A DNA stretch of 20,292 nucleotides, the filler included, from Phyllosticta citribraziliensis (lineage: Eukaryota): NCBI RefSeq assembly GCF_038025025.1. It is 3 parts of 3 records of this genome, joined end to end, with 100 filler letters (N's around TTAATTAATTAA, not from the genome) between each part and the next. Parts side by side here need not be neighbours in the genome. Positions count along the whole stretch, not along the records: positions 14,073 to 17,620 come from NW_027117358.1; 2 more parts are not named here. One strand, 5' to 3'. Position numbers and translations under genes: made by a program. The notes under the pieces were generated by a model, which was given only the letters and a program-made list of their open reading frames with translations, was not told where the DNA came from and ran no database searches. Of this stretch, positions 2,380 through 20,292 are shown one piece after another (the stretch's first letter is position 1; each line of letters starts with the position of its first letter).

Positions 2380-3893
2380 CTAAAGAAGAACTTTTTCCCA
2401 CCACGGGTATAAGATAGATGTCGACCAAGTCGCGACTACCCGTAGCGACTTAAGAAGCTTATAGATATCAATGAGGTTTTCCGTGCCTCCTATAAGCTTC
2501 GGACCGTACATCTTGAACGTGTTTGTCTCGGGTTCATTAGTGACGAAGTAGAGATTCCATCTCGTCCCAGCAACGACGATGGCGGGAAGCGTTGGTACGG
2601 GCGCTCTGCCTTGGGCAAGCTGGCGGAAGCGCGCAATCTGAAGCGCTGTACAGCTAAATACTTGCGCATCTGCCCTTGATTTCTCAGTAACGGTGCCGGA
2701 CTTGGTCTCTATGCTGACAGCGATCGGGCGTCTGCACATGTACTCGAGGGCAGTTGCGTTGAAAGTCTACGGCAGCTGTCAGTTGCGCTATTCTCTTCTG
2801 CTAGTCCGAGATTTGTAAACCGACCGGTCTGACGTTTGGTTGGCCTTGAGCAAGCACTGCGTTCCATAGCCGCGGAAATTGTTGCTGACTTGGCAGATCG
2901 AGAACGATGGCGTAGTCAACCATGCTGGACGGGTGCAGGGGATTGATGGAGAGTGTCGAAGCCAAGTCTCTAGGGTAAACAGCTGCTCGTGTCCTGTGAA
3001 ACAATGTCATCAGAGCGGCACAAGAAGAGGAAAAAGTCCCGGATGTGTACGCACACATTGCGCCAGCCCACCCCGTCGAGACCGCGGAGCGCAGTTTGTA
3101 ACACCGGATAGTGGACCATTTCGTTCCAACACGCTTCGGTTCCCTCTTCCTGGACCAAATCCTTTGAAGCCTCGTAAACGTCGAGAACGTGGTCGAACTC
3201 GCGCTCGATTTGACGGTCGTCGCGGTCGTCGACCGCGTAGATGTCGTCGCCGACACCCAAATACTCAAAATGCTGAGTTGCGGCACTTTCGTTCTGTCGG
3301 CTTAATCAGCCTCGGTCGCGAAGACCATCCCAACCCCAGAAGCAACTTGCCTTGAGCTGGACAGGAACGAGCCTTTGGGTACTCAGAGACTTTGGTATCT
3401 GTGAGAGGAGCCCAAATGCATCCCGACCAAGAACATCAACCTCTTTGCCAGCAATCGTCTCAAGCCCAATGGCCTTCTCGCCCGCCGATATAGACAATTC
3501 GATCATGGATTTGACAGGGCTTCGAGTCGAACTGGCCGTCGTCGTCGTGGTTGATTTAGACGAGCGCGATGGCAGCGATGGCGTGCCGCGGGTTCTCTTA
3601 GATTGTGGCGGCCTGGGCGTCTCTTCCTCGTCCTGCCTTCCTTGTGATGCATGCCTCTTTGAGGGTGTGCTGGTCGACATGTCAGGTGTGGGCAGGCGGA
3701 GACGGCAGCGCTTGGATGGCGGCGGCGGCGACGGCGATTGCGATTGATGGCGGCGCTTGCGTGAGGATGAGGATGAGGATGAAGACTGCTGGTGCGGACG
3801 TGGAGATTCGCGATCGTCGTCGACGACTTGGTGGAGCCAGTTGAAGACGTGTTGCTGTTGCTGATGCTGTTCCTGCTGCTCGTACACCGGCAT
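2380..3893 (-). CDS. Fungal PD-(D/E)XK nuclease-like domain protein, ~445 aa, 4 exons (3893-3351, 3293-3055, 2993-2825, 2766-2380)
   Basis: Four ORF-track fragments join in frame across introns 3350-3294 (GC-AG), 3054-2994 (GTGCGT..CAG) and 2824-2767 (GTCGGT..ACTGAC..TAG; an alternative donor 9 nt upstream is possible). Disordered S/P/R-rich N-terminus ending RSPVK, then EACWNEMVHYPVL, MVDYAIVL, RPIAVSIETK (D...ExK core), LPAIVVAGTRWNLYF and GGTENLIDIYKLLKSL..W. These match my recollection of the fungal PDDEXK-like family. Confidence 0.85.
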
Positions 3894-4490
3894 CGGAAAT
3901 TGAAGGCAAGAGAGTGGATGCAGAGATATTGATTTGGTGAAGCTGCTATATAGCGATGGCAATGTTATATGGTTGGTGGTTGTATGGTTGGTGGTTGGTG
4001 GTTGGGTGTTGGTTGTTTACGGTATGATGGGGTGGCGGTGTTGTGCCTGCAGGAGACTGACTGCGGCACCTAGGCGAGTGTCGGGTGACCATTTACCCGC
4101 GCGTTTAATCGCTGTGCTCCATTAGCTCGCGAGCCTCACTCGTTAGCCAGATGGCGCCTCATGAGAAAAGTCCTGACCAATGGTTTAGAGTAGTTAGTTC
4201 TAGTTTATTCGATGAGCATTCGTCGTTGCCAAGATAAAACAGGTGGTCGCCTAGGCAGCGCTTAGTAATATACGCGGTCCGAGGTCTCAGCAGAGGTCGC
4301 CGACGACCTGCTTCAAGTTCTAGTATCTAATTCGATGCCTCTTCCTACTCGACTACCTTCTACTCGTAGCAAAATCGGATGATTGCCATGGATATGACCT
4401 GACCTGACCGCGACCACGACTTACGCCTCGACTCATCCATCCTATAGAGTCAAAGCACTGCAACCCTGCCAGCCGGTTTCGACGCAGACC

Positions 4491-5033
4491 ATGGCGCCAA
4501 AAGTCGCGACCACAACGCGCAGCGCAAACACCACACTCCGTGGGCTCAAGACGCGACTGAAGACAACGCAGGCCATCCTCGGCGAGGCTCGCGCAAAGCT
4601 AGCCAAAATGGAGCTCGGCATCACCCAACTGCAGGACCTCGGGCGCAAGCGGTCCAGTGTCGTTGACGCAGAGCGCGAGCGGCTGCAGCAGCGGAGCGGC
4701 GAGCTCAAGGGCCTCGCGCACGAAGCGCACGAGGTGGCCGGCGACGTTGCGGCGAAGAAGCAGCCGGAGTTGAAGAGACTTCCACGGACGCCGCCGGGCA
4801 AGCAGACGTTCCAGTATGTTGCACACGAAGCGGGCGGAAACGTCAAGGCTCTTCCACAGCGCGCCACTCTCGACAAACACCCAAACAGCGTTTCCAGCGG
4901 CGGCACTTTCGTTGACGCCCACCAGGACCGCATCGACTCGCCCATGAGGGAGGAGAAGCACAAGAGCTGGGGCTCGGATGACAAGGGATTTGTGTCCGCT
5001 CGGCAGTCTCTGGAGGATCCGTTCATCGACTGA
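4491..5033 (+). CDS. Hypothetical protein, 180 aa, N-terminal coiled-coil
   Basis: ATG in good context (GACCATGG), GC3-rich codons, heptad-like stretch LRGLKTRLKTTQAILGEARAKLAKMELGITQLQDL...ERERLQQRSGELKGLAHE. No recognisable domain. Confidence 0.6.
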   Translation: MAPKVATTTRSANTTLRGLKTRLKTTQAILGEARAKLAKMELGITQLQDLGRKRSSVVDAERERLQQRSGELKGLAHEAHEVAGDVAAKKQPELKRLPRTPPGKQTFQYVAHEAGGNVKALPQRATLDKHPNSVSSGGTFVDAHQDRIDSPMREEKHKSWGSDDKGFVSARQSLEDPFID

Positions 5034-6638
5034 TTCCCGCTCGCATGTCTTTACCGCTCGGCTAGTGGCGCACGGGGATTGTTTCTGCGTTGTGGTCAGC
5101 ATAGGGGCAAGATACCCGACTCGGAAGGAAATGGTCAGCATCCAAAGGCGTTTTCAAGGTTCGGTATACCCACGGATGAAAGTTGAATGGAGTTTTGCGA
5201 AAGTCATACATCTCGCCGGCGCAATTCGATACAGCGGGCAATCAGGCGAACAAACTCAGCCAAGAATGAAGTTCTTTTCGCTTGAATTGCGACTCATAGT
5301 GACGGTGATCTGTGAATTTGACAAACAACAACGATTCGAAGCGCACGCCCACAGAGACCTCGCCATAGGCAGACCAAGAATCCGCAAGACGGTGTGCGTA
5401 TTGAAGGCCGAGTAGCAAGAAATCCAGGAGATGGGGGCGGTAAAGATCCTGCGCATGGTCGTCGGAGCAGAGCGCAAGCAAAATATCGGCAGCGGTCTGA
5501 GCCTTCGACGACAGCCGCGGGAAAGCTTGCACATCGTATGTGGAAATTCGTAAAGATCGGAATGCATCTCTGAGGCTTGTCAAGCAGGCATTGCTTTGAG
5601 CGGGCTGCTTGGCCACCCGAAGTGATCATGATTAGCCGAGTGGCCTGGCTTCTGGAACCGTAATCCTGAAGGATGCGCAATGCACAAACAAACTGATTGC
5701 ATGGAAAGGAGATGCGCAAGCAAGCGGCAAGAGGGCTTCAAGGTGGGAGTAATCCACGACAGTCAACTTTGATCTCGTTGAGAATTTGTGACTGTTGAAG
5801 AACTTGAGTTGGACGTGAAGGAAACCGACAGCGAAACTCCTCTGGTTCCAAGGAGCAGAAATCAGACAGAAGTACATGTGGAAAAAAGAATCAGAAGCAA
5901 AAAGATCGTACGGATGCAAAGGAAACGTTCGGCGCCGGAGCGAGGAGCAAGTACTGCTCCTAATGGCTCGTGGGAATGGAAGTGCGCTGCAGATCAGCTA
6001 TGCAGCGCGGTTCGATGTAGAGGCATGCTCCAGTGGTTTGGTCAGGATGATTACCATAGACAAATGGACATGATTGATCCAAGACAATGTGATGAAGTCG
6101 CTGCCGTCCCCGGCCAAGGTACCCTGTCTGATCAATTCTTCAAAGTCGATGGCAATTCCGTCTTGGGAGCAGCGGTGAAGGTCCTGTAGCGGAAGCGGAG
6201 AGGATTCCCGATGGCCAGATTCTCGTGTTGCAAAGAGAAGCGGGAAAAACGTCCATCGTCGCTCGGGAAGCTTTGGAAAGCGATTTCTCTTGAACCTCAG
6301 GCACGGCGGACGGGGGAGAAGGAAAAGTGGCTGAGCAGCGGCATATTGAGATGCTCAATACGCTATGCCTTGGCAAGGCCGGGCAGAATAGACCGAGTTG
6401 AATAAAGGAGAGTAATGAGAGGAAAGTCAGGGGAATGGTTTGAGACACCGCAAGAGCAAGGCCCTTCGTCCGAGTAGAATCGAGGATCAAGAAAGACCAT
6501 ACCGACCAGCTGACGCTGTGACGACATCGACAAGAACGAAACCAACTGAAACGATTATGGCGCTGGGAGATGTCCGTTCCTCATGAGGGTATTGTGCAAT
6601 TCAATTGCTTCGTCATCGAGAAATCCACACGCACCTCC

Positions 6639-7089
6639 TCATTTCCTGCCCTCGACCATGACGATGTGGTAGCCCTCGCTGGTCTTGACCTCTGCGTACT
6701 TTGGGTTGCCCGTTGTGCTAGGCTCCAGCTCATACGCAACCTTTTCGAAGTCAGCGAGCAAGCTTCCGCGCGTCTTCCAGCCCAAAGAGCCGCCTAAAGG
6801 ATACCTATCAGCACAATTCTTCAAACACCGGCTCGCCGCTCCAGCTACCAGGCTCCATGGAAGAAATGAACACACCTTGTCGCGCCTTGTCCTCCGACAT
6901 CTCCCTCGCTACTTCGTCAAACTTTGCGCCGTTGCGCAGCTTCTCCAAGGCCTCCTCCTTCTTGCTGTGCTTTTCGCATAGGATGTGGCGCACGTTGATG
7001 CTGGTTGCAGGCTTGAGCTTGCCGCTGCCCTTGTCGCCGCCGGCGTCTTTTCCGCCCTTGCCGCCAGCCTGCTTGCCTTTGGGCGCCAT
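6639..7089 (-). CDS. PIN4: Parvulin-type peptidyl-prolyl cis-trans isomerase (Par14/PIN4), 122 aa, exons 7089-6876 and 6793-6639
   Basis: K/G-rich N-terminus [48 protein letters not shown]-terminal [11 protein letters not shown]. An 82 bp intron 6875-6794 (GTGTGT..GCTGAT..TAG) restores QGGSLGW. Confidence 0.96.
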
Positions 7090-7410
7090 GATGTTTCGTG
7101 TGCTGGTGAGAGGGCGAGGTTGTGGAGTTGTTGGAGGAGCGAGAATCTGTTTGAGACGGTGGGGCTGACGTCGTGGGAATCCGGATTGGCGGCGGGTGGT
7201 CATAGCTTCAAGCTCAACACCAGCTACTCGCAGGGCATTTCCAGGCTTCCTGTCAAGATCACTTCTTGCTTCCAGGTTTGCGCTTCCAACATGTATCGGA
7301 CGGGCTGCGGCGCCCAGATCTTTGTTTGCTGTGGATTGATTGCAGCTCGATAACCGGGCCTTGAGACTTTCCCATCTCCCGACACGAAATCTACAACCAC
7401 CACCATCGAC
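7090..7410. promoter_or_regulatory. Probable bidirectional promoter between PIN4 and the AlkB-like gene
   Basis: Only 321 bp separate the two divergent start codons. Inferred from arrangement; no specific motif identified. Confidence 0.55.
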
Positions 7411-8238
7411 ATGGCCGACAACTTCAGAGGCAAGCTTCTGGAAGCGGCGCGCATTCCACATCTACCGGATGCCATGTACTACATTCCAGACTTCATCACT
7501 GAATACGAAGAGGAACAAATCCTGGCCAAGGTATTCCTCCACGGTGTTTCGACCCAGCGCTGCTAACACCAACAGCTGCCGCCAAACCGCTGGACGGTCC
7601 TCTCGCACCGCCGACTCCAAGCCCATCCGTCCACACTGACGGCGTCCAACACGCTGCTCGCCGCGCCGCTTCCCAACTATCTGACCACCAGCCCGGCGCC
7701 GCTACTCGCGCGCTTCGAGCAGCTCAGCATCTTTTCGCATACGCCGCACCGAGCCCCGAACCACTGCCTTGTCAACGAATATCGGCGCGGCGAAGGAATC
7801 ATGCCACACGAAGACGGAGCCGCCTACGCCCCCGTTGTTGCAACCGTTAGTCTCGGCGGCACAGTGGTGTTGGAAGTGACGCCGAAGCGGCGCGACGAAG
7901 TAGACAAGGACAGCGAGAAAGAGGCAGTCGAGGCATTGGGCCCTGAGGAGCAGCAGCGTACACAGAGAATCGTGTGCGCGCCTCGGTCATTGTTGGTGAC
8001 TGTGCGGACGGCGTACACAACAACGCTACATGGAATACCCGACGTCTCAGTGGACGAGTTTCTAGGGCCAGGGACGGTTGCGAACTGGGATTTACTGGGA
8101 CACGAAGCTCGGGAAAAATACCTGGTGGCTGGAGGGCGCAATGAGCGAGGAACAAGAGTCAGTCTGACGTTTCGGGATGTACTCAAGGTGGCAAAGGCGG
8201 GGGGACTGGGCAAGCTTTTGGGCGGTGGGAGGAAGTAG
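7411..8238 (+). CDS. ALKBH6: Fe(II)/2-oxoglutarate-dependent dioxygenase, ALKBH6-like, 260 aa, exons 7411-7530 and 7576-8238
   Basis: [19 protein letters not shown] | [15 protein letters not shown]...[19 protein letters not shown] (HxD), VATVSLG, PRSLLV, LHGI (distal His), [10 protein letters not shown] (2OG-binding Arg). 45 bp intron 7531-7575 (GTATTC..GCTAAC..CAG). Confidence 0.92.
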
Positions 8239-9495
8239 CTGTAGACTTGGGGCAGTGTTTTCTCTCCCGACCAGTCAGAAGTGCATGCTTGGTGTTTGGG
8301 AGGGCTGGGACATGGAAAATTTCGCTTTGCCAGTAAGGTAGGATGCATGGTGGCCGTCATGCGCACGGTCTAGAGACATGATTGGCTGAGGGATTCTTTG
8401 TTCAGGGTCTTATCTACAAGAATAGCCACATGGACTTGATGTTCCCCGACGCAGCTGACGGGTAGGGTACGCTGAAACAGATGGTCGTATGCGAGAACAA
8501 GATTCAGGGCGGTAGATAGAGTTCACTGAGCACATGAGTAAGGCGAGTTGAGTTGGGGCAGCGTGTGTTGCGGAGCACATGGACAGACAGCAGGGCAGAG
8601 ATCTGATGGGGACAGGCACGATAAGGATTGCGCAACATGGCGACATGGCATGCATGTTTCCTTGGACGGATAAAGCCGACGCTGTGAGGCAGCATGATGC
8701 GGTGCAGCATGTGCAAAATAAAGAGATGTCAAAAAGGCAGAGCAGAGGGACCCTGCATGGCGGCTCGAGGGCGGGATGCAACCAACGGAACCCAAAACGG
8801 CACGGCCAGAGGCGCCACGACGGGTGCGCGGCGCGAGCCTTTGGAGCGTTCGTTTTTCGATTCCTGAGCAGAGGGAGGGCGGGCGACGATGACGATTGGA
8901 GTGGATTGTTGGAGCAAACATGACCTCGAGCGTGACGGTGCAGCTCACCTCATGATCCACCAGGGCGAGGGGCACGTGGCTGCGAGAGAGCCGGGCGGCG
9001 TGTGGGATGGATTCCTGGAGAAGATAGCGATAAGGGCTTCCTCTGAAGTCGAACAGAAGATGTTATTTACTCTTCTTCCTCTCTCTCTCTCTCCTGACGT
9101 GCCCAGTGTCTCACACAAACTGAACTCATTGCTAGCAGAGCAGGGCATCCAGTGGGCAGCTGCACTTGGGCCTTGGGCTGACCTGACCTGTCTCTGAATC
9201 CCAACACCCCGCTTCGCTGCATCACATCGCATCCCCATCTCCATCCCTCATCCCCGGCTTCTCCTCTCCAAGCCTCGCTACCGCTGATTCATGCCTCTGC
9301 GGCTCCCTCTCCAACCTCCGCTGCCTGGTTGTTCTACTCCTCTGTACTCCACGCTGTCTTACCAACCAGTCAGCTCAGCTCATCTCGTCGCATCTGTCCG
9401 CACTTGTCCCCGAACGTCTCTCGCTTCATAACCCGCCTGCCGCTTGCAGCTCCTCAAACCACACCACCCGTCACCCGCACGCCATCTAGCCGCCA

Positions 9496-11628
9496 ATGGA
9501 CCAGCCCACGTCCATCGACGCCGTCGTCCAAACCGCTGGCGAAATCGCTCCCGTGTCCCCCGCAAACTCCCCGACCGATGCCATACCCATCGACCGCCCC
9601 AAGCTAAAGGGCCGTCACAGGATCCTACAAGGCTTGCAGCGCATGGGCTCGTCGCCCTCTCTGGCGAGAATGGGCAGAACACCTTCGTCAGGATACCGCG
9701 GTGGAAAGGCCTCCATGTCTTGCGTTTCTCTGTCCTCCGCGGGCTCATACGGTCATTCCTACGGCAGCTCGTGGTCCTCTGAGCTGTCCAACGGCTATTC
9801 GACCGCACCAACCTCTGCTTCGAGCACTCCTAGCCCCGATGTCCAAGCCTTTGACAACGTCCGCATACGCTTCGTCGATGCTCCAAACAGTCCTTCGTCA
9901 GTCCCTCTGCCCTCTGATCTCCGGCCAAACTCGAGGGCGGGCGCCTTGCCGGGAGTCGACGAGGATTATTTTTCCAGGCCAGCCAAGCAGATGAAAGCCC
10001 ACCAAAGGCGCCCCAACTTCAACTTTTGGGCCGACATGCCCCACGAGCTCCGTATAGAAATTCTCAGCCATCTCAAGCCCAAGGAAATCGTTTGCGCTTC
10101 TTCCGTCTCTAAAAAATGGCTCGAAATGTGCTTCGATGGGCAGCTTTGGGCCCGACTGGACACTTCTGAATTCTATCGCGACATTCCTGCCGACGCCCTC
10201 GTAAATATTATTACCACTGCTGGACCCTTTGTCCGAGACCTCAACCTCCGCGGATGCGTACAATTACGGGACCGGTGGACACAAAAAGGACTGTCGGAAG
10301 CTTGCCGCAACTTGGAGAACTTCTCGCTCGAGGGTTGCCGCATCGATCGGAGTTCCATCCATTGCTTTTTGCTACAAAACAACCGCCTTGTTCATATCAA
10401 TCTTTCCGGGCTCGCAGGCGCCACGAATGCCGCCATGAAAATCATCGCCTCGCACTGTTCCAAGCTCGAGCACCTCAACGTATCCTGGTGTAACAATATT
10501 GACACGCGCGGACTGCGCAAGGTTGTCGAAGGTTGTCCCAACCTGAAAGATCTTCGCGCTGGAGAGGTGCGAGGCTGGGACGACGTCGAGTTCATGAACG
10601 AACTGTTTACAAGAAATACGCTGGAGCGACTGATTCTCATGAATTGCGACAGCATCAATGACGACTCGCTGGCCGCTCTCGTCGAGGGTATCGACACCGA
10701 AGTGGATGTTTTGACTGGCCGCGCCATGGTGCCTCCCCGGAAGCTCAAGCATCTCGACCTCACACGATGCCGTGGCCTGACGGATGGCGGTATCAAGAAG
10801 CTGGCCTACAATATCCCATATCTCGAGGGCCTTCAGCTTTCCAAATGCGCCGTCCTGACTGACGCCTCGCTGCAAGCTCTTCTCCCGACACTTCCCAATC
10901 TGACGCATTTGGACCTTGAAGAGCTCGACGAGCTGACCAACGTCACACTGCAAACTCTCTCCACATCGCCTTGCAAAGCGCAACTGTCACATCTCAGCAT
11001 TTCCTACTGCGAGCTCCTCGGCGACGCTGGCATGCTCCCTGTCCTCAAATCCTGCACCAAGCTCGAGACACTCGACATGGACAACACGCGCATCTCGGAT
11101 CTTGTGCTCGCCGAAGCCGCCGCCATGATGCGCGCTAGGAACCGCGTTGCACGACCGCTGAGTGGGACTGAAAGGCCCTGCACCGGCCTCCGCATCGTCG
11201 CATACGACTGCGCCAACGTGACATGGACTGGAATTCGCGAAGTGTTGTCGCGAAACGCCGAAATCACGACTCCACCGCGGTCCACGACTACCGACTCCAC
11301 GACTGTGGCGGCCCCTGCCTATCCCCGCGAAATCATCCAACTCAAGTGCTTCTACAACTGGCAGCCGACGGTCGACGAACACACGAAGCGCGTGCTGCGC
11401 GGCGAATTCGCGTCGGCGGCGCGCCTGGAACGCAAGTGGGCCGACTGGATGATGATGAACGAGGAGGCAGGCGTCGGCGGAGCGGGAAACCGCCGACGCA
11501 GAAGGCGCGCACGCGAAGCCCAGGCACTACATGCTGACGAGGAAGAGGGCGGCGGCCTGCTCGTTGGCGTGGGCCAGGGGCGCAGGAGGAGAGCGCGTAG
11601 CGGCCCCGGTGGCTGCGTTGTCATGTGA
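9496..11628 (+). CDS. F-box and leucine-rich-repeat protein (FBXL2/20-like SCF adaptor), 710 aa, single exon, C-terminal CAAX
   Basis: F-box MPHELRIEILSHLKPKEIVCASSVSKKW...DGQLW, followed by Cys-containing LRRs (VRDLNLRGC, LENFSLEGC, LEHLNVSWC, LKHLDLTRC, LEGLQLSKC, LSHLSISYC). Ends RRRRARSGPGGCVVM*. Confidence 0.93.
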   Translation: MDQPTSIDAVVQTAGEIAPVSPANSPTDAIPIDRPKLKGRHRILQGLQRMGSSPSLARMGRTPSSGYRGGKASMSCVSLSSAGSYGHSYGSSWSSELSNGYSTAPTSASSTPSPDVQAFDNVRIRFVDAPNSPSSVPLPSDLRPNSRAGALPGVDEDYFSRPAKQMKAHQRRPNFNFWADMPHELRIEILSHLKPKEIVCASSVSKKWLEMCFDGQLWARLDTSEFYRDIPADALVNIITTAGPFVRDLNLRGCVQLRDRWTQKGLSEACRNLENFSLEGCRIDRSSIHCFLLQNNRLVHINLSGLAGATNAAMKIIASHCSKLEHLNVSWCNNIDTRGLRKVVEGCPNLKDLRAGEVRGWDDVEFMNELFTRNTLERLILMNCDSINDDSLAALVEGIDTEVDVLTGRAMVPPRKLKHLDLTRCRGLTDGGIKKLAYNIPYLEGLQLSKCAVLTDASLQALLPTLPNLTHLDLEELDELTNVTLQTLSTSPCKAQLSHLSISYCELLGDAGMLPVLKSCTKLETLDMDNTRISDLVLAEAAAMMRARNRVARPLSGTERPCTGLRIVAYDCANVTWTGIREVLSRNAEITTPPRSTTTDSTTVAAPAYPREIIQLKCFYNWQPTVDEHTKRVLRGEFASAARLERKWADWMMMNEEAGVGGAGNRRRRRRAREAQALHADEEEGGGLLVGVGQGRRRRARSGPGGCVVM

Positions 11629-13321
11629 ATTGACTCGTGTCCTGTGAATAACGAGCATTCGGACTGATTGGATTCGAAATGAACCCACTGGCATTTTGGG
11701 GCGGATTGGCATGGGCGTGCTCAGCATTGCTCGCGACGCACGAACGGCACAAGCGTTTGAACGTCTGTATGTACGACATCAAAGCAGGCAAGCATCACAG
11801 GCCCGGAGGATATTCCTGGCGGACAGACGGATGATGGACATGGAGATGGATACGTTTCGAACATATCGCGGCTTTTACGGCGCAAACGCTACACGGCAAT
11901 ATCTATCGGTATGCCGCACGATTGACAGCGGGCAGGTAGGAGTTGTTCCTTTCTCTGCATTGGACATGTTGTCTTCCCCCATTTACACTGGACGCGTGCG
12001 ACGCAGGCAGGCAGCCGGGGAGCATTCATTGGGTTTTCTTTTTCCTCCTCACTACTATCAACAACGGCGAAATGACAAGATGGTACGGATTGGGCTGGGT
12101 TTTGTTTCGTTCACTTTTGCCTCGGTCGGTCGGTCTGGTTTGGACGAACGGACGGACGGCTGTTTTCTCCCCTGTGCTTGGTCTCCTATTTTCTTGCGAC
12201 CTGTTGTTCCTCGATGGAATGACGGGCTGGGCTGGGACGCGGTGCAGGGCTGGCTGGGTGGCTGGGTGACTCTATTCATAGAAATTCCCATTCTTTCTGC
12301 ACACTCCCGCGCTTCGCTCGATGATTGATTTCGCGTTCACTCTGCTGGGTATGGTTCATTGTTCTATTCGAAGAGGGCAAGGTTTTCGTGGCACATGAGA
12401 GTAGTCTGCGCGAAACGAGTGCCCCTGGTTTGCTCTCTCCCTCCCCTCCCCTTCAGTCCTCTCCGCAGCCCCGGTCATACTCTACGAATATCCTCGGGCT
12501 AACAGAATAATCAGGTACAGAGCCTCTGCGGATAATCCAACCGCCGTAGTGACAAGTAGCTTATTCCCGCAGGTAGCGTATTATGCACCCGTCACGCCAC
12601 TCCCTCGCGGCCTACCTGTCACTATCTTAAATCTGTGCGGAGCCTACGTCCGTATGTACATACAAAACTATGAATGTCCGCGCATGTACGTCACGCTGTC
12701 AACGCGAGCCTAGAGCGACCTACTGCACGCGTGCTTCGTAGAGCTAGCGGCGCGCATACGCTACCTTCTTTGGCAGCACGCGACAGATGCGGCGCTTCGA
12801 GCGCCGGCGCGCTGGCGGGTGACGTCACTAGCCGTGCATGGTGGGAAAATGTCTGGAAGACTAACGCGGTTTGGGGCTAAGGGTGTGGGAGTAGGTAAAT
12901 AACCCGAGTGGTGCGCTAGAGAATCGCATGGCGTGCGGCGGAGAGGTTAAGATGCTTCTGCATGAACCGAACAGCTTGAGGGTGGTAGAGTTGGGGGGTT
13001 TTGGCCAGTTAGCGTGCCTGCAAAGGGCGGAAATATGGGAGAGGGAGGGAGAAAGTGAGGGTCGCTGATCTGGAGGCCTGAAGTGATTGCTCGCTGCTTC
13101 CGTCTGGCGGACACGATCGTAAGGTGTCCCGCATGGATGGGTCAGTTGCCAAAGATTTTGGGCTGCTAGGCTTTCCAGTCTAAAGAAGCGGGTCAGGACC
13201 AGCAACGTGATAGGGCTGGTTAGAGAAATTCTTTAAAGGCTGAAATTGACATTCTTATAGTAAAGGACTACTATAGGAAACCTTTATATTAAGTATAGGA
13301 GAGGAATAATCTAGGAGCAAG

Positions 13322-13972
13322 TAGTATAGTTAATAACTTAATAAGTTATATAAGTTATATAATTAAATTATATAATATAATATAATATAATTAATTAGGT
13401 ACCTTCTAGTTTAGGTAATTAATTAATTCTATACCTCTAATTAATTAAATTATATTACTAAGTTACTCTAATTAATTAAAGCTATAGTATTAAGTTTTTT
13501 ACTCTTAGACTAGGCTAAATTTACTTATTTATAGCCTTTATACTACCTCCTTATATATATACTAATTTATCTATATACCTAATTAATATATCCTATAAAT
13601 AAGATAATAAGTCTATTTCTTCTTATTATTCTAATCCTTACCTTACTCCTCTACTAATAGCTACTATAATATAGTATCTACTATATTTATAGTATCTATT
13701 AATACCTCTACTTACTTAATAGCTACTAGTAGTAGATAATAATAATAATTATATTTTAAATATATTCCCTAACCCTTTAATAAATACTACTAAGGAAGGA
13801 TATAATATAATACTAGATAAATAGAAGTACTTCTCTTAGATAATAGAATTTAGAGGCTATATTAAGATAGCTATAATATAACTATATACTAATTAAACTT
13901 AGGAATATAGGTTTAATATAAAGGATAAGACTAATATAAGAAAATAGATATATAAGATCTATTATAACTTAT
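13322..13972 (+). mobile_element. Probable hAT-family DNA transposon, 5' end, RIP-inactivated and truncated by the gap
   Basis: The frame at 13741-13971 gives *EYRFNIKDKTNIRK*IYKIY, which de-RIPs to W-E-H-G-F...W-V-C-K-I-C, the start of a BED-type zinc finger of fungal hAT transposases. TAGTATAG at 13322 can be a RIP-ed CAGTG terminus, followed by repeated TAATTAATT subterminal motifs. Confidence 0.5.
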
Positions 13973-14072
13973 NNNNNNNNNNNNNNNNNNNNNNNNNNNN
14001 NNNNNNNNNNNNNNNNTTAATTAATTAANNNNNNNNNNNNNNNNNNNNNNNNNNNNNNNNNNNNNNNNNNNN
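13973..14072. other. Artificial assembly spacer (N44-TTAATTAATTAA-N44)
   Basis: Exactly 100 bp, with a palindromic six-frame stop linker at 14017-14028; identical design to the second gap. Confidence 0.97.
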
Positions 14073-16570
14073 TAACATACTTATTATCTCTAAAAACCCT
14101 ATAGAGCACGAGGAATAAGTAAAAAAAGTACTAGTAAGACTATAAAAAGTAGGACTATAGGTAGATTTAAAGAAGAGCAAGTTTTTAGTTACTTATATAA
14201 AGTTTCTTAGATATATCATTTCTATAGAAGGCATTTAAATAGACCTAGATAAGGTAGAACCTATATAAAACTAGCTAATACTAAAAACCCTTAAAGCTCT
14301 TTAATCCTTCCTAGGTTTCTATAATTTCTACTAATAATTTCTCCCTAACTATAGACGAATTAGCTAACTATTAGAGAAACTATACTCTAAGGCAAAATAG
14401 TAATAACTAGGACCCCTAGAAGAAGAGGCAATTTAGTAACTTAAGAAGCTAATATATAGTAATATACTCCTAGCTAACTATAACCCTACTCTTAACACTT
14501 ATATAGAGACTAATATAAGTAATAGAGTTACTATAGGCATTTTAATACAGCTCTAATAACCTTTATATAATTAGAAACTAGTAGCCTTCTACTCTAAGAT
14601 AATAGTAGATGTAGAACTTTATTATAGAATTTTAAATAAAGAACTACTAGCTATTAAGAATAGACTAGAAGAATAGAGACTAATACTTATTAGCCTTAAA
14701 AAACCTTTTCTTATAATTATAGACTATTAGGCATTAGAGTACTACTCTACTAAATAACAACTTAATTAATAATAAGCTAGATAGTCTAAGTTTTTTATAG
14801 AATTCTATATATAATTCTCCTATTAACTAGGAAAGGAAAATATTATTACTAATTACCTTACTTAAAAATAAGAAGACCTAAAGACTTAAAAAGAAAAAGT
14901 AAGGGCTATATAAGAGATGTGCCTTATCCTACTAGAGACTATTATCCCTCTTTCTATTTTAGAATAAGAACTTCCTCTTCTAGTATTATTTTTAGATAAA
15001 CTCTTCTATATAAACTAGAAAGATTCTAAATTAGAACTCTAAAGATAGAAAGCCCTCTTAAAAGACCTTAAATAAAGAAATAGTTAGGAACTAAAAGATA
15101 GTCTTTTACTATAATATAGCACCCTCTTTATACTAGATTATAATAACCTCTGTATAAGAATACTTAATACTTTATATACTACCTATATAACTACCTATCC
15201 TAGTATTATAAAGATGTAAAAACTCCTTAAGCAATATTACTACTAGCTAGCTATAAATCATATAATTAATATTTATAGGTGAGGATGCTATATTTACTAC
15301 TAAATAAAAGAGTTTTATAATAAAGACCTAGGCCTTCTATAACCCCTAGAGATTCCTACTCAACCCTAGTAATACTTAGCTATAGATTTTAAAGAGATGC
15401 CTAAAGACTAAAAGGGCTATAATATAATTCTAGTTATTATAAACTAGTTAAGTTAAAGAACCTTTAGCTTGCCTTATATAAAGAAGATTAATACTAAAGG
15501 AGTCTCTAGACTCTTTTATAAATATATCTACTATATTTATAGAAACCCTAAGTCTATCCTATCTAACTAAGGCCCTTAGTTTATCTTAGCGTTTATAAAT
15601 AAACTATATAAGCTGACTAGTATAGAGTAGCATTTTAACTTATCCTACTACTCTTAAACTAATAGTATTATAGAGATTATTAATTAGCATCTTATATAAA
15701 GATTAAGACCTTTTATTAATTACTTTTAGAATAATTAGTCTAATCTTCTACTATTAATAGACCTTATATAAGTAACACTTCCCTATAAAGCTACTAGACT
15801 TTTACCTTTTAAGATTAAGTTAGGATATTCCCCTTAATTATACTATAACTAGTAATAAAGAACTAAAACCCCCTAGTAACTAGAGAAAATAGCTTATATA
15901 GTAGTATAAATACTATAAAAGAGAAGATAAGAAGCTTTTAAATTTATAAAGAATCTTATTCTTAAATCCTAAGAGTATATATACTAATAAGCCAATAAAT
16001 ACCATCGCGCGCTAGACTTTATAGTTAGAGATTATATCTATATTAAGAAAACAGGATGGTCTACTAATTAGCTAAACCTTAAATTAGACTTTCCTAATAC
16101 TAGACCTTTTAAGATTATAGAAATAGAAGGACCCTTCTATATCCTTAATCTTCCCTTATATATAAAGATAGTCAACCTTTTCTATACTAATAGGCTATAT
16201 AAGGCTAAAATAGAATAGCTTCCTAGTTAGGAATATACTAAATCTAAACCTAAGATTATTTAAGATGAGCCTAAGTAGGAAGTAGACTATATTTAAGCTA
16301 GTTAAGTCTTATATAGGAAGCTTTAATACTAAGTTAAATAGACTAGATATAACTAAGATAACTAGTAGTATAATATAAGTTCTTTTAGTAGTATACTATA
16401 GAAAATTAAAGAATTCTACTTATTACACCCTACTATAGTAGGACTACTAAAAAATCTAGAAAAATAGAAAACTACCTTCCTTTAAGAAGAACCCTAGATT
16501 AAAAGAGAAAGTAATAATAAAATAAGTTACTTAGGCCTATAGTAAATATTATAAAGATATAGAAAGTAGA
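14073..16570 (+). mobile_element. Ty3/Gypsy chromovirus LTR retrotransposon pol (RT end, RNase H, integrase, chromodomain), RIP-inactivated
   Basis: One frame from 14074: NILIIS...EHEE*VKKVL (after YxDD), SFLGFYNFY, ETNISN (ETDASD, 14506), VAFYSK, KELLAI, GLL*PLEIPTQP**YLAIDF (~15385), SN*GP*F (SDRGPQF), TNSIIEIIN (TDG..E..N), RPFKII (GPF), chromodomain *EVDYI...Y*VK*TRY...EFYLLHP (16261-16450). The order RT-RH-INT-CHD is Gypsy. Confidence 0.96.
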
Positions 16571-16599
16571 CTAATTAGTTTACTATCTATTCTTATATA

Positions 16600-17620
16600 A
16601 ATACTATTAATCTTAACTCCTACTCTCTAGTCTCTTTTTTTTATTACTTATTCCCTATTATCTCTTCCTTTACTTCCTTCCTTTTCCCTTCTTCTTATTA
16701 TAACTATTATTATATAAGACAGTCTCTTCTAGATCTTCTAGCTTATTAGGCAGGATGTCCTACTTAGCTAAAGCCTAATTAGTTTAATCCTCTACCCTAG
16801 CTTAATAGTATAAGTTCTAGAACTCCTCTATATAAATTTTATCTTTATACCTCTTATAATAAGCAGGCAGCTTGGCACCTTTTAAGTTACTAATAGTACA
16901 GTCTAAGTTACCTATACTTTAAAGGCAGTTGGCGCAGCAGCCCTATAAGAAACTAGGCAGGTAGTAATAACTAATAAACGCGCGAGTATTAGTATTATTA
17001 TAATACTTAGTATAGCTAATAGGGTTATTAATTCTAGTATACTAGATAAGAAAAGCATCGCGCGAGCTGGCTTAAGTTTTAACTAATAAGTAGTTAAATT
17101 ATTAAGTAGAAACTATAATATATAAGTAAGGTATACTATTACCTAAGGCCAAGATGTATTTAGCGCGCTCTTATACTTTAGAACTACTAAGGTGCGCCTA
17201 TATAGTTAGTTAGATAAGAATCCCTTATATTAGTAAGATAAACTTACTTATATAATACTCTCTATATTCTTATAAGGAATATAAAGTATTAACTTAAAGT
17301 CCTACTTAATAGGCACCTTATTAGAGCTAACTAGTAATGCTATAATATAAATCTTACTGTTACTACTATTATATAAAGTAGTAGGTAGTAAGTACTTAGC
17401 TACTAGAACCTAATAAGCTGTAGGATTATAATAATAGTATATATAAGTAGGCTCTTTACCTTCTTCCTCTAAAACAGGCTGCGCGACAGTGAACTAGTAG
17501 TAATGCAGTGTAATATGCTAGTTAGTAGTAGGCTGCGCAGCTATAGACGACGAACCTTATATGATAACTAATAATGCTAATTAAGTAGAACCTAATACTG
17601 TAGTATGCTATAGGTAAAGT
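16600..17620 (-). pseudogene. RIP-inactivated spliced gene encoding a Cys-rich DUF3716-like domain, antisense and immediately 3' of the Gypsy pol
   Basis: Exon frame ...AQPVLEEEGKEPT...NKVPIK*DFKLILYIPYKNIESII* to 17248, 50 bp phase-0 intron 17247-17198 (GTAAGT..ACTAAC..TAG), then AHLSSSKV*ERAKYILALG...DAFLI*YTR...SYTKY...RAFISYYYLPSFL*GCCANCL*SIGNLDCT and a basic tail KKKGKGRK*RKR. The 5' end is lost in the gap. Confidence 0.7.
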
Positions 17621-17720
17621 NNNNNNNNNNNNNNNNNNNNNNNNNNNNNNNNNNNNNNNNNNNNTTAATTAATTAANNNNNNNNNNNNNNNNNNNNNNNN
17701 NNNNNNNNNNNNNNNNNNNN
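17621..17720. other. Artificial assembly spacer (N44-TTAATTAATTAA-N44)
   Basis: Exactly 100 bp, linker at 17665-17676. Confidence 0.97.
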
Positions 17721-20030
17721 CGTCTTAAGAGCACTAAATTTAATATAAGAGTAGAGAAAGAATAGTTTATTAGCTATAACTATAAGTATATCTTCTAGGT
17801 ATATCTCCCTTAAATAAACTAGGTTATCTATACTTAGAATATATATTTTAGACCTCCTTAGTAGCTAGACTTAATAGCTACTATAAATAATATAGAAGAT
17901 AGAAAAGTTAAGAATAGTAATAATAAGATGCTTATTATATATCTTATATTAAAAATAGTTTAAGATGCTCTTAAAGGTAATACTAAAGTAATCTATAATA
18001 TAGCAGAATAAGTAATTAAAGTAGTAGAGAGGTCTAATATAGGTAGTATAGATATTAGTAGTAGAGGTAAGGAGGATGTATTTATAGATATTATACTATT
18101 AGTAGATAAAATAGATTAGATTAATATCTCTCTAGCTAATAAATATACTAGATCTAATAATTTAGTACTTACTAACCTAACTTTAACCCTACTACTACCC
18201 TTACTATCTCTATTACCTATATCTACTCTACTACTAATAGTACTATTATAATACCCTTAGTAGATTTGCACTAAGATATAATTCTTTAATAAGAAATATA
18301 GTTTAGATAATACTTAACCTCCTTAACTATCTACTTACTATATACGCACCTTTACTACTATAGAAAATACTACTTATTACTAATAAGATACTATCCCTAC
18401 TAATAAGGTTCTACCTTACTTATAGTATAAGGCCCTTATAGGGCTAAAATCTATCTATTAGAGACCCTCTATAGATAAGTAGATATAGGAGTTAACTAAT
18501 ACTAGTACCTTTAAAGAGACTAACTACCTATTAGATAGCTCTTAGGTACTGCTACTATAATAGGTCTAGGTCTATAAGCTTAATAAGCTAGGTAAGAAGG
18601 TTGTCTATAAGAGCTATATTATAGTTTTAGGTAATCTTTAATATAAGGGATTTAATATATCTAAAGTATTATTACTAGTTATTATATTTCCTACTTTTAT
18701 ACTATTTTTAGTAATCAACATCTATTATTACCTATTTTATAAGTAAGGGGATATTAAGACAGCCTTCCTTAATATACTACTAAAAGACCTAGTCTATACC
18801 TATATACCTCCTAGATACTAGGTCCTATAATAAGTTTAGCGTCTCTAAAGAGCCTTATATAGCTTATACTAGTTACTACTTACTTAGTTTTAGTGCCTCT
18901 ATAATTTCTTATACTACCTAGGTTTCTACTCTCTCCCTTTAGAACCCTATATTATAAGATACTAGGATAAGCTTATATTTATCCTTATCTATATTAATAA
19001 TCTCTATATTACTACTAAAACTAAGTCTAAAGTTAATAAAATTATCTTACTACTTAATACTAAGATCTACTTTAAAGATATAGGCTGACTATATTACTTC
19101 CTTAGTCTTTATATTAATTAATATATAAACGGCATAATTATACTATCCTAAGGTAGATATATTTAAAATATTCTTATATAGTTTAGTATAAGTAATGCTA
19201 TACGCGTCCTTATACTAATAGATTCCTATAAATTACGCGTGTATAATAGTAAGAATAACCTAGACTATTAATAGCTTTATAATAAGATTATTAGCTTACT
19301 TATATAGTATATAATAAGATGCTATCTAGCTATTCTTTTCCCTACTACTCATCTCTTATAATATACCTATAACCTATTAAATAAACACCTTACTGCTACT
19401 TACTAAGTCCTTTAATACTTATAGGGTATATATAATTATAGAATCATTCTATACCCTAGTAATAATGGCACTCTTAGCTTATAAATCTATATAGATACTA
19501 CTTTTACTAATAATCTAGATACTTATTAGTCCTTATTAGGCTATATTATTATAGCTTTAGGTAGTTTACTATATATAAAGAGTAGGAGATAGAAGCTTAT
19601 TAGTATATCTATAATAGAAGCTAAGTTTATTAACCTTACTCCTACTATTAAATAAGCCATCTAGATGACTTAAGTTCTTACTAAAATAGGTTATAAGGGC
19701 CCTAATACTTAACTAATCTAGCTCTATAATAATAATAAGAATACCATCTAATTTACTAATAGTATAGAGTTTAATACTACTATAAAACATATTAATCTAT
19801 ACTACTAGTATATTAAGTAGGTAGTTATAGATAGAACTATAACCATCTCTTATATCTCTACTAATAAGATGATTATAGATAGGCTTACTAAAGTATTAAT
19901 AATAGTTAAGTACCACTACTTTTATAACCTTATTAGGTATAGACTAATATAGTAAGTTTTCTATTTAGTTAATATAACTACTTATATATCTACTCTACTA
20001 TAACTATCTCTTTTCTCATCCTAGGGGGTA
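17721..20030 (+). mobile_element. Ty1/Copia LTR retrotransposon pol 3' half (post-integrase SH3-like region, RT, RNase H) with polypurine tract, RIP-inactivated
   Basis: One frame from 17721: KFNIRVEKE*FISY (K.D.R...FVGY), YKSYIIVLGNL (KARLVARG), DIKTAFLN (18750), RALYSL (KALYGL), YINN (YVDD, 18990), ISIIEAKF (STTEAEY), KHINLYY (KHID, 19785), IIDRLTK (ADGLTK). AGGGGG polypurine tract at 20023-20028. Confidence 0.96.
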
Positions 20031-20292
20031 TATTAGTAGTCCTATATAATAATACTAAGCAGTCTCCCATCGCATCATCTTAGCTACAGTTCACCTAGAT
20101 AACTACAGCTTATCCAGACAACAACTTACTACTTTAGTCAAGATACACTTATCTATTAGCTTTATATATCTCAACAAGTTCAGGACTCATCAGCAGTTAG
20201 TACCAGCTACTACTCCCCCTGGCAGTTTCAGCAGTATATAGATAGCTCTCAGAGTAGCCTCAAATAGAGTCTTCAGTTCTCTCATCTTACTT
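20031..20292 (+). repeat. Probable 3' LTR of the Copia element (right end not identified)
   Basis: Starts TATT (RIP-ed TGTT) two bases after the polypurine tract. The partner LTR is not in the window, so this is positional inference. Confidence 0.65.

Follow-up and report, generated by a model that had tools for sequence, protein, structure and literature searches.

A DUF3716-type relic lying tail-to-tail with a degraded Gypsy chromovirus pol in Phyllosticta citribraziliensis, and its tentative reading as an antisense accessory gene

What stood downstream of pol in a Ty3/Gypsy retrotransposon whose remains are preserved in the fungus Phyllosticta citribraziliensis? The stretch of DNA that we analysed, which we refer to as the window (20,292 nucleotides, from assembly GCF_038025025.1), carries such a pol relic on the plus strand of the part taken from NW_027117358.1. 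A preliminary description of this part had proposed that, in the place where a polypurine tract and a 3' long terminal repeat (LTR) would be expected, the element instead carried an antisense, intron-containing, cysteine-rich accessory gene resembling the DUF3716 family. Our own reading is that minus-strand 16895-16978 is the relic of a DUF3716-family gene, destroyed by repeat-induced point mutation (RIP) and lying tail-to-tail with a chromovirus pol, and that it was once the antisense accessory gene of that chromovirus. We offer this reading as a whole tentatively, as possible but short of probable, and its parts differ considerably in strength.

The plus-strand relic is that of a Ty3/Gypsy pol. 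Pfam reports PF17919 (4e-11) and PF17917 (1.3e-10), both above cut-off, together with RVT_1 at 18.4 bits (E 0.0019), below its cut-off of 29.6 bits. A protein search with the relic returned 24 polyproteins, the best of which is 26% identical over 89% of the query and itself carries PF00665 and PF00385, while PF00078, PF17917 and PF00665 are present on the aligned polyproteins. Reverse transcriptase, RNase H and integrase follow one another in the order by which a Ty3/Gypsy chromovirus is recognised. The assignment to the Gypsy chromoviruses is thereby upheld as far as the pol domains and the chromodomain polyproteins among the best matches are concerned; the chromodomain itself is a likeness read by eye at about 16270-16430, and PF00385 was not reported by Pfam on the translation of the window. 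The five top matches (P0003-P0007) are rich in N and K and 65-73% alike among themselves; their apparent close kinship with this pol was judged to be driven by composition, and they were not used to fetch loci.

The relic lies in AT-rich DNA. A gene-bearing block at about 2500-13300 has a GC content of 0.50-0.64, and the blocks on either side of it (1-2500 and 13300-20292) are AT-rich, with a GC content of 0.17-0.36. TGA is nearly missing from the AT-rich blocks, and TAA and TAG make up 6-19% of the codons whichever frame is read. In a filamentous fungus, RIP leads one to expect just such a scarcity of TGA and flood of TAA and TAG, so that these blocks bear the signature expected of DNA mutated in this way. 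The minus-strand region downstream of pol has a GC content of 0.29-0.30, as against 0.24-0.28 in pol. Because artificial scaffold linkers bound 14073-17620 on both sides, this part is a separate contig of 3548 bases, and adjacency across the linkers is not sequence evidence; the contig stops at 14073 and at 17620, and the expectation of a 3' LTR was judged only up to the latter position.

Within this mutated DNA the codons for GCCANC are intact on the minus strand, exactly where they had been reported. A cluster of four cysteines within 15 codons occurs here and nowhere else among the 18570 six-frame codons of the AT-rich parts, of which Cys makes up 0.55% overall. We took advantage of this motif by back-translating it into a DNA pattern for C-x3-P-[GSR]-F-x2-G-x-C-x-N-C, for use in a metagenome search. 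The window fits seven of the eight pattern positions unchanged, and the eighth, the first Cys, is present as TAT, one RIP-type transition away. The back-translated pattern identified 55 loci among metagenome contigs; in viral contigs the peptide pattern had no match. Non-duplicate pieces of 85 residues from the 55 loci, with stops written as X, were then scanned together with the piece from the window. PF12511, the DUF3716 family, was matched by 16 of the 55 pieces, of which 10 reached at least the cut-off of 22 bits, and the remaining 39 matched nothing. Two features outside the pattern, a Cys at the ninth residue past the N-C and an F or W at the third residue ahead of the first Cys, are found together in 15 of the 16 DUF3716 pieces and in none of the 39 others; the window has the two in undamaged codons, TGT and TTT. 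One family supplies nine copies among the 16 pieces, leaving about seven independent lineages. The resulting core signature, C-x3-P-[GS]-F-x2-G-x-C-x-N-C-x8-C with F or W at -3, may on this comparison be what defines DUF3716, and the window has it, with the first Cys as TAT. Since the pattern retrieves PF12511 members among natural sequences, the likeness to DUF3716 that had been proposed is supported, if indirectly.

We also made a profile from seven relatives (P0027-P0030, L020, L033 and L015). It aligns to the contig only at the core, with a raw score of 27.9 bits, as compared with null maxima of 16.3 bits for 140 genomic windows of the same mutated DNA and 17.6-18.0 bits for 200-300 codon shuffles. 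When the profile was made RIP-aware, with reverted changes charged at 2 bits each, the score was 36.8 bits and the corresponding null values were 17.3 and 19.1 bits. RIP-aware scoring with no such penalty gave 57.5-77.5 bits for the target and null maxima of 60.9-105 bits; the null was inflated, and this variant was dropped. We are confident that a Cys-rich gene of DUF3716 type did leave a relic here, of about 28 codons as far as the evidence reaches.

Beyond these codons the proposed gene is much less distinct. The preliminary description had envisaged about 1 kb of coding relic, and this was not confirmed: Pfam, the protein searches, the profile and a local tblastn return nothing significant outside the core. 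The region between the core and the intron-like signals scores at noise level with the profile, and tblastn found nothing beyond the core. A frame 2 match inside the candidate intron (17243-17193, 11.6 bits) was likewise at noise level and was dismissed. The cysteine pattern that had been reconstructed by reversing RIP is sound in its GCCANC core and unsupported in its upstream CxxC part, where the Cys pair is present only as TAT codons (17014-17012 and 17005-17003), possibly former Cys codons, in a stretch whose masked score lies only about one standard deviation (z ~1) from the null. The further claim that the frames are poor in stops was not borne out: stops number 21 among the 212 codons of the GCCANC frame and 13-40 in the five remaining frames there, of which two have 13 and 14. 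Nor is the true pol frame any freer of stops than its antisense frames, with 86 in 819 codons compared with 72-118 in other frames. Stop counts are thus alike in true and other frames, and stop density is uninformative in this mutated DNA. A K/R-rich tail is present as had been described, and basic C-terminal tails are also found in the homologues L020 and P0029, at a similar distance from the core.

The 50-base candidate intron is a similar case. Its signals are where they had been placed (GTAAGT at 17247-17242, ACTAAC at 17210-17205 and TAG at 17200-17198), and the strict GTAAGT..ACTAAC..TAG pattern occurs once in the 9293 bases, taken on two strands, of the AT-rich parts. Its expectation by chance is about 0.1, as estimated from motif counts, a rarity that we regard as suggestive but not strong. 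The homologues P0027-P0030, L020 and L033, however, are uninterrupted open reading frames (ORFs) with no intron at the matching place, and the homologue ORFs are 261-509 codons long. The signals are therefore confirmed and homology support for an intron is not; we regard the 1 kb gene model, its exon 1 and its intron as unproven.

The arrangement of the two relics agrees with what had been reported. The pol ends near 16530 and the basic tail near 16619, with about 90 bases between them and no LTR-sized gap, and the core, which the other strand carries, is about 365 bases downstream of the pol end, so that the Cys-rich relic and the chromovirus pol converge tail-to-tail. Both are multicopy, in line with what had been surmised. 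We counted copies as contig pieces of at least 80% likeness from the public runs X1, X5, X8 and X9, which represent several organisms. The 3548 bases are matched by 1778 contig pieces in X1 and 360 in X5, with all 30 of 30 bins covered in both; copies are anywhere between more than 99% and less than 90% identical, and nearly every difference is a transition. Listed sites in X1 have 6-17 variant contigs each in pol, 7-15 at 16426-16918 and 3-11 further right, and 16440-16906 is tiled by contigs of X5, X8 and X9 with 7-18 differences each. The contigs of these runs may be orthologous loci rather than paralogous copies. Cover ends at about 16690 in X8 and at about 17285 in X9; neither was used as evidence, and depth was not used for ranking.

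If the tentative reading is correct, pol and the Cys-rich gene would have lain inside one LTR pair, and a repeat family would have carried a DUF3716 gene antisense between pol and the 3' LTR, as brtn is carried in Boty. The gene would have been transcribed from a promoter of its own on the 3' side, and in the antisense orientation an intron could have survived retrotransposition. Its product, presumably a small, Cys-rich, zinc- and DNA-binding protein, would have used the basic tail to enter the nucleus, where binding to DNA or chromatin would have benefited the element. Amplification would have followed, and after it RIP on all copies. Nothing in the present copy is functional now.

Several observations weigh against this reading. 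The first group concerns the element. No repeat pair, LTR or target duplication was found in the window, and the contig shows no gag. The listed contigs that bridge the junction start at 16440, 16475 and 16506, and none of them reaches to the left of 16440. In X5, one contig departs after 16475 and another enters at 16440, each into unlike sequence, which places a break at the very end of pol in some copies. Other copies have an extra 14 bases around 16657-16666, in the basic tail, a length that is not a multiple of three.

The second group concerns the kinship with DUF3716, which has its support in the pattern and in the intact extra features and lacks it in the translation of the relic itself. 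With stops as X, that translation matches no Pfam family at E up to 10, and when the piece was rescanned at E up to 1 it again matched none, the PF12511 cut-off of 22 bits not being reached. Such a failure is to be expected where RIP has turned candidate Cys codons into TAT or TAC, and it is compatible with descent; comparably stop-ridden relics linked to hAT elements nevertheless still score 17-28 bits. When the eight columns that had served to fish for relatives were masked, the profile score fell to 11.7 bits, within the null (means of 10.0-10.8 and maxima of 16.3-19.0 bits), and all of the significance therefore resides in columns that were chosen from the window itself. Lastly, the metagenome family described below has no fixed relation to Gypsy pols, given that strand and distance vary: nearby pols are on the same strand, 2.4-5.4 kb away, in three of its loci and divergent in two.

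Other searches with these sequences were negative or uninformative. A word-indexed protein homologue search with the Cys-rich relic gave 27 candidates, none at E up to 10. A HMMER search of 1.84 billion representatives returned only P0001, a TPR-repeat protein whose match runs through a short motif that recurs, and P0002, a repeat protein of 224 amino acids with a pairwise BLASTP score of 30 bits and no Pfam family above cut-off; neither is related to DUF3716, and neither was informative. A RIP-tolerant pattern of 74 bases (16685-16758) had no match in metagenome contigs. With pol and the relic as queries against viral contigs there was no confirmed match, in a search whose words were RIP-laden 8-mers.

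The alternative that survives best is that the Cys-rich relic belonged to another mobile element, of hAT or IS3EU type, which was inserted at the pol end or truncated against it; the tail-to-tail arrangement would then be an accident of nesting, a chance juxtaposition which segmental duplication, or transport as a passenger, may have multiplied afterwards. We consider this a serious contender, if on balance somewhat doubtful. DUF3716 genes are recurrent cargo of DNA transposons, both IS3EU and hAT, which also counts against the accessory-gene reading; the accessible text of PMC8232023 describes REP9, an IS3EU element of Zymoseptoria, as carrying two of them. The nine copies of one family among our DUF3716 pieces (L005, L022, L025, L031, L032, L037, L045, L047 and L053) form a RIP-mutated, multicopy family. 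In four of them (L005, L025, L047 and L053) about 3.1-3.4 kb upstream of the motif are held in common, and this unit encodes a hAT dimerisation domain (Dimer_Tnp_hAT; L047, 23.8 bits; L005, 17.7 bits). A little-mutated locus from a different sample set than the L005 family, L036:1-2841 (minus strand), scores 59.7 bits for Dimer_Tnp_hAT and 25.8 bits for DUF3716; the two share a strand, at about 270 codons from each other, and the interval contains stops. An unusual G-C-C is common to the window and to the RIP-mutated, hAT-linked copies, the nine of which share ..PFTKCRSLPGFxGGCCGNCKW... The loose ends of X5 at 16440 and 16475 fit an insertion or truncation, and the window is itself a patchwork of truncated elements, the neighbouring contig being a Copia relic.

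Against an origin in another element stands the finding that 16531-17620 gives no transposase signal in any minus-strand frame. The core of L036 has its hAT domain some 800 bases upstream, and the equivalent of that domain here would fall past the end of the contig. The roughly 90 bases between the basic tail and the pol end leave little room for a transposon terminus, and the numbers of X1 variant contigs per site are similar on both sides of the junction.

A less favoured alternative makes the motif a product of chance, or a short piece that was captured, in non-coding 3' Gypsy sequence such as an untranslated region or a long LTR, and never part of a 1 kb gene. The confinement of the score to about 28 codons, the null result of the masked test, the uninformative stop density, the estimated chance expectation of the intron signals and the tail indels that are not multiples of three would all be in keeping with it. 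The four intact cysteines in 15 codons, unique among the codons surveyed, and the presence in the window of the two extra features that none of the 39 chance matches to the pattern has, are not; a unique Cys cluster with family-specific features makes pure chance an unlikely origin but weighs less against a captured fragment, and we consider this alternative improbable. Very improbable is an origin as a host DUF3716 gene, present in a single copy, to which RIP had spread from a neighbouring repeat: ordinary host genes of the family do exist (L015, beside a gene resembling NAD-binding epimerases, and L046, with no transposon domain), but 16572-17620 is multicopy, with 3-15 variant contigs at listed sites in X1 and X5 and variants spread over the 99+, 95-99 and 90-95% identity classes.

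The metagenome loci merit description in their own right. Two members of the nine-locus family, L022 (1877-8938) and L032 (1844-8877 of the motif-oriented copy), have in common a Gypsy element of about 7.1 kb, at 84% identity, which stands in opposite orientations beside truncated hAT/DUF3716 units, a nesting typical of RIP regions. At L049, two intact DUF3716 paralogues, P0027 and P0028, lie in tandem on the plus strand (9452-10288 and 11852-12727) with 57% identity; their neighbours are an ORF of 880 codons, with an Ulp1-protease match of 20.4 bits (cut-off 20.7), and an ORF of 1397 codons with no known family, and the region may be another large mobile element. An AlphaFold2 model of P0027 has a pLDDT of 66 and a pTM of 0.70, with residues 40-135 mostly above a pLDDT of 70. 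Foldseek found no match for it in the PDB at E up to 0.001, and a wide VIA-align comparison gave a best Z of 2.0; judging from the model, the N-terminal domain may have a fold that has not been described. A Neurospora member of the family, NCU05718, is called a telomeric-sequence-binding protein in the accessible part of PMC10776026.

With regard to what the locus may mean, the present copy is dead and truncated by the assembly, and we regard it as a lead and not as a result. Should the linkage hold, antisense accessory genes would be on record for two fungal chromovirus lineages, this one being the second, and the gene would acquire a family name, DUF3716, in common with DNA transposon cargo, and with it a handle on its function. 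A broader idea, which we think unlikely as matters stand, is that DUF3716 is a Cys-rich DNA-binding module that serves as an accessory in IS3EU, hAT and Ty3/Gypsy elements, in the last of these antisense and with an intron of its own. Were that true, cargo common to three kinds of element would point to a general pro-transposon function, such as telomeric or heterochromatic targeting or the countering of silencing, and the brtn-like antisense genes of fungal chromoviruses would join a wider family. A more solid by-product of the analysis is that DUF3716 genes are found on hAT elements as well as on IS3EU. In the accessible portions of the papers retrieved by a literature search on the word DUF3716, a link to hAT elements or LTR retrotransposons was not mentioned.

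The features of the contig and its immediate surroundings are collected in Table 1. Elsewhere in the window, the left AT-rich block contains a perfect tandem repeat (1326-1454), with self-matches of 100% identity at offsets of 54-102 bases in steps of 6. At a distance of about 1.7 kb from its border with AT-rich DNA, the GC-rich block contains an intact ORF of 710 codons (9496-11625, plus strand), in which an F-box (1.1e-12) is accompanied by leucine-rich repeats (1.4e-13).

Table 1. Coordinates of features in and around the contig at 14073-17620 (window positions; stops in translations as asterisks)
Feature	Position	Strand	Basis or remark
Artificial scaffold linker, 44 N + TTAATTAATTAA + 44 N	13973-14072		Left bound of the 3548-base contig
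Ty3/Gypsy pol relic, RIP-degraded: end of reverse transcriptase, RNase H, integrase, chromodomain-like tail	14074-16530	+	Pfam and protein search
Purine-rich run, possible polypurine tract	16500-16527	+	At the pol end; suggested by reading of the sequence
K/R-rich run, codons 168-193 of the GCCANC frame	16619-16696	-	Polypurine tract on the minus strand
DUF3716-core relic, FISYYYLPSFL*GCCANCL*SIGNLDCT	16895-16978	-	Only part with statistical support
Intact GCCANC codons, GGCTGCTGCGCCAACTGC	16925-16942	-	Read from the sequence
Candidate upstream domain part, AFLI..	16979-17071	-	Not significant; masked-column z ~1
Candidate intron-like signals, GTAAGT..ACTAAC..TAG, 50 bases	17198-17247	-	No homology support
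Putative exon 1	17248-17620	-	Pfam: no match in any frame; best profile score 9.3-11.7 bits, inside the null
Artificial scaffold linker, same make as the left one	17621-17720		Right bound of the 3548-base contig
Ty1/Copia relic, RIP-degraded, on the next contig	17721-20291	+	PF07727 (RVT_2), 4.9e-12

Among known systems, those that have the Cys-rich core in common with the window are DNA transposons. The hAT loci (L036, L005, L047 and their relatives) contain the same core, and their RIP-mutated copies further resemble the window in having G-C-C-x-N-C followed by an aromatic residue, in being multicopy and in bearing RIP-like mutations; unlike the window, whose contig shows no transposase, they have the core on the strand of the hAT transposase. 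REP9 of Zymoseptoria tritici (REP9-1 and REP9-2) is comparable as a case of transposon-borne DUF3716 genes in a Dothideomycete, and it differs in being a class II transposon with an integrase-like transposase, whose genes are not described as antisense in the accessible text of PMC8232023. The same text gives REP9-1 as lacking a signal peptide and having no known function.

The systems that resemble the window in arrangement are retrotransposons. The brtn gene of the Boty-like elements is reportedly the subject of Zhao et al. 2011, Virology 417:248. In plants, the Retand, Grande and RIRE2 elements have antisense ORFs between pol and the 3' LTR, according to the accessible parts of PMC11963269 and PMC7264820. 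Like the gene that we propose, these are antisense accessory ORFs situated after pol, and in those sources they are lineage-conserved and predicted to bind DNA, the Grande protein being nuclear; they differ in belonging to non-chromovirus lineages, in having a TRP28 domain and in the length of the region from pol to the 3' LTR, which is 2.9-6.6 kb. Closest is the Boty-like chromovirus of Botrytis and Sclerotinia, in which, as reported by the accessible text of citing papers (PMC7264820, PMC8365987, PMC4227169 and PMC5987419), brtn sits antisense in the space from pol to the 3' LTR; in the supplements of PMC8365987 there is nothing on brtn or on DUF domains. Boty, in Botrytis cinerea and Sclerotinia sclerotiorum, is of the chromodomain gag-pol kind, with an extra antisense gene downstream of pol, and the element in the window would be of the same make. 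The parts in the window are all destroyed by RIP, and the contig contains no LTR; the likeness that we propose is one of arrangement. Arrangements in which an antisense gene follows pol and precedes the 3' LTR have already been described, in Boty with its brtn and in the plant elements.

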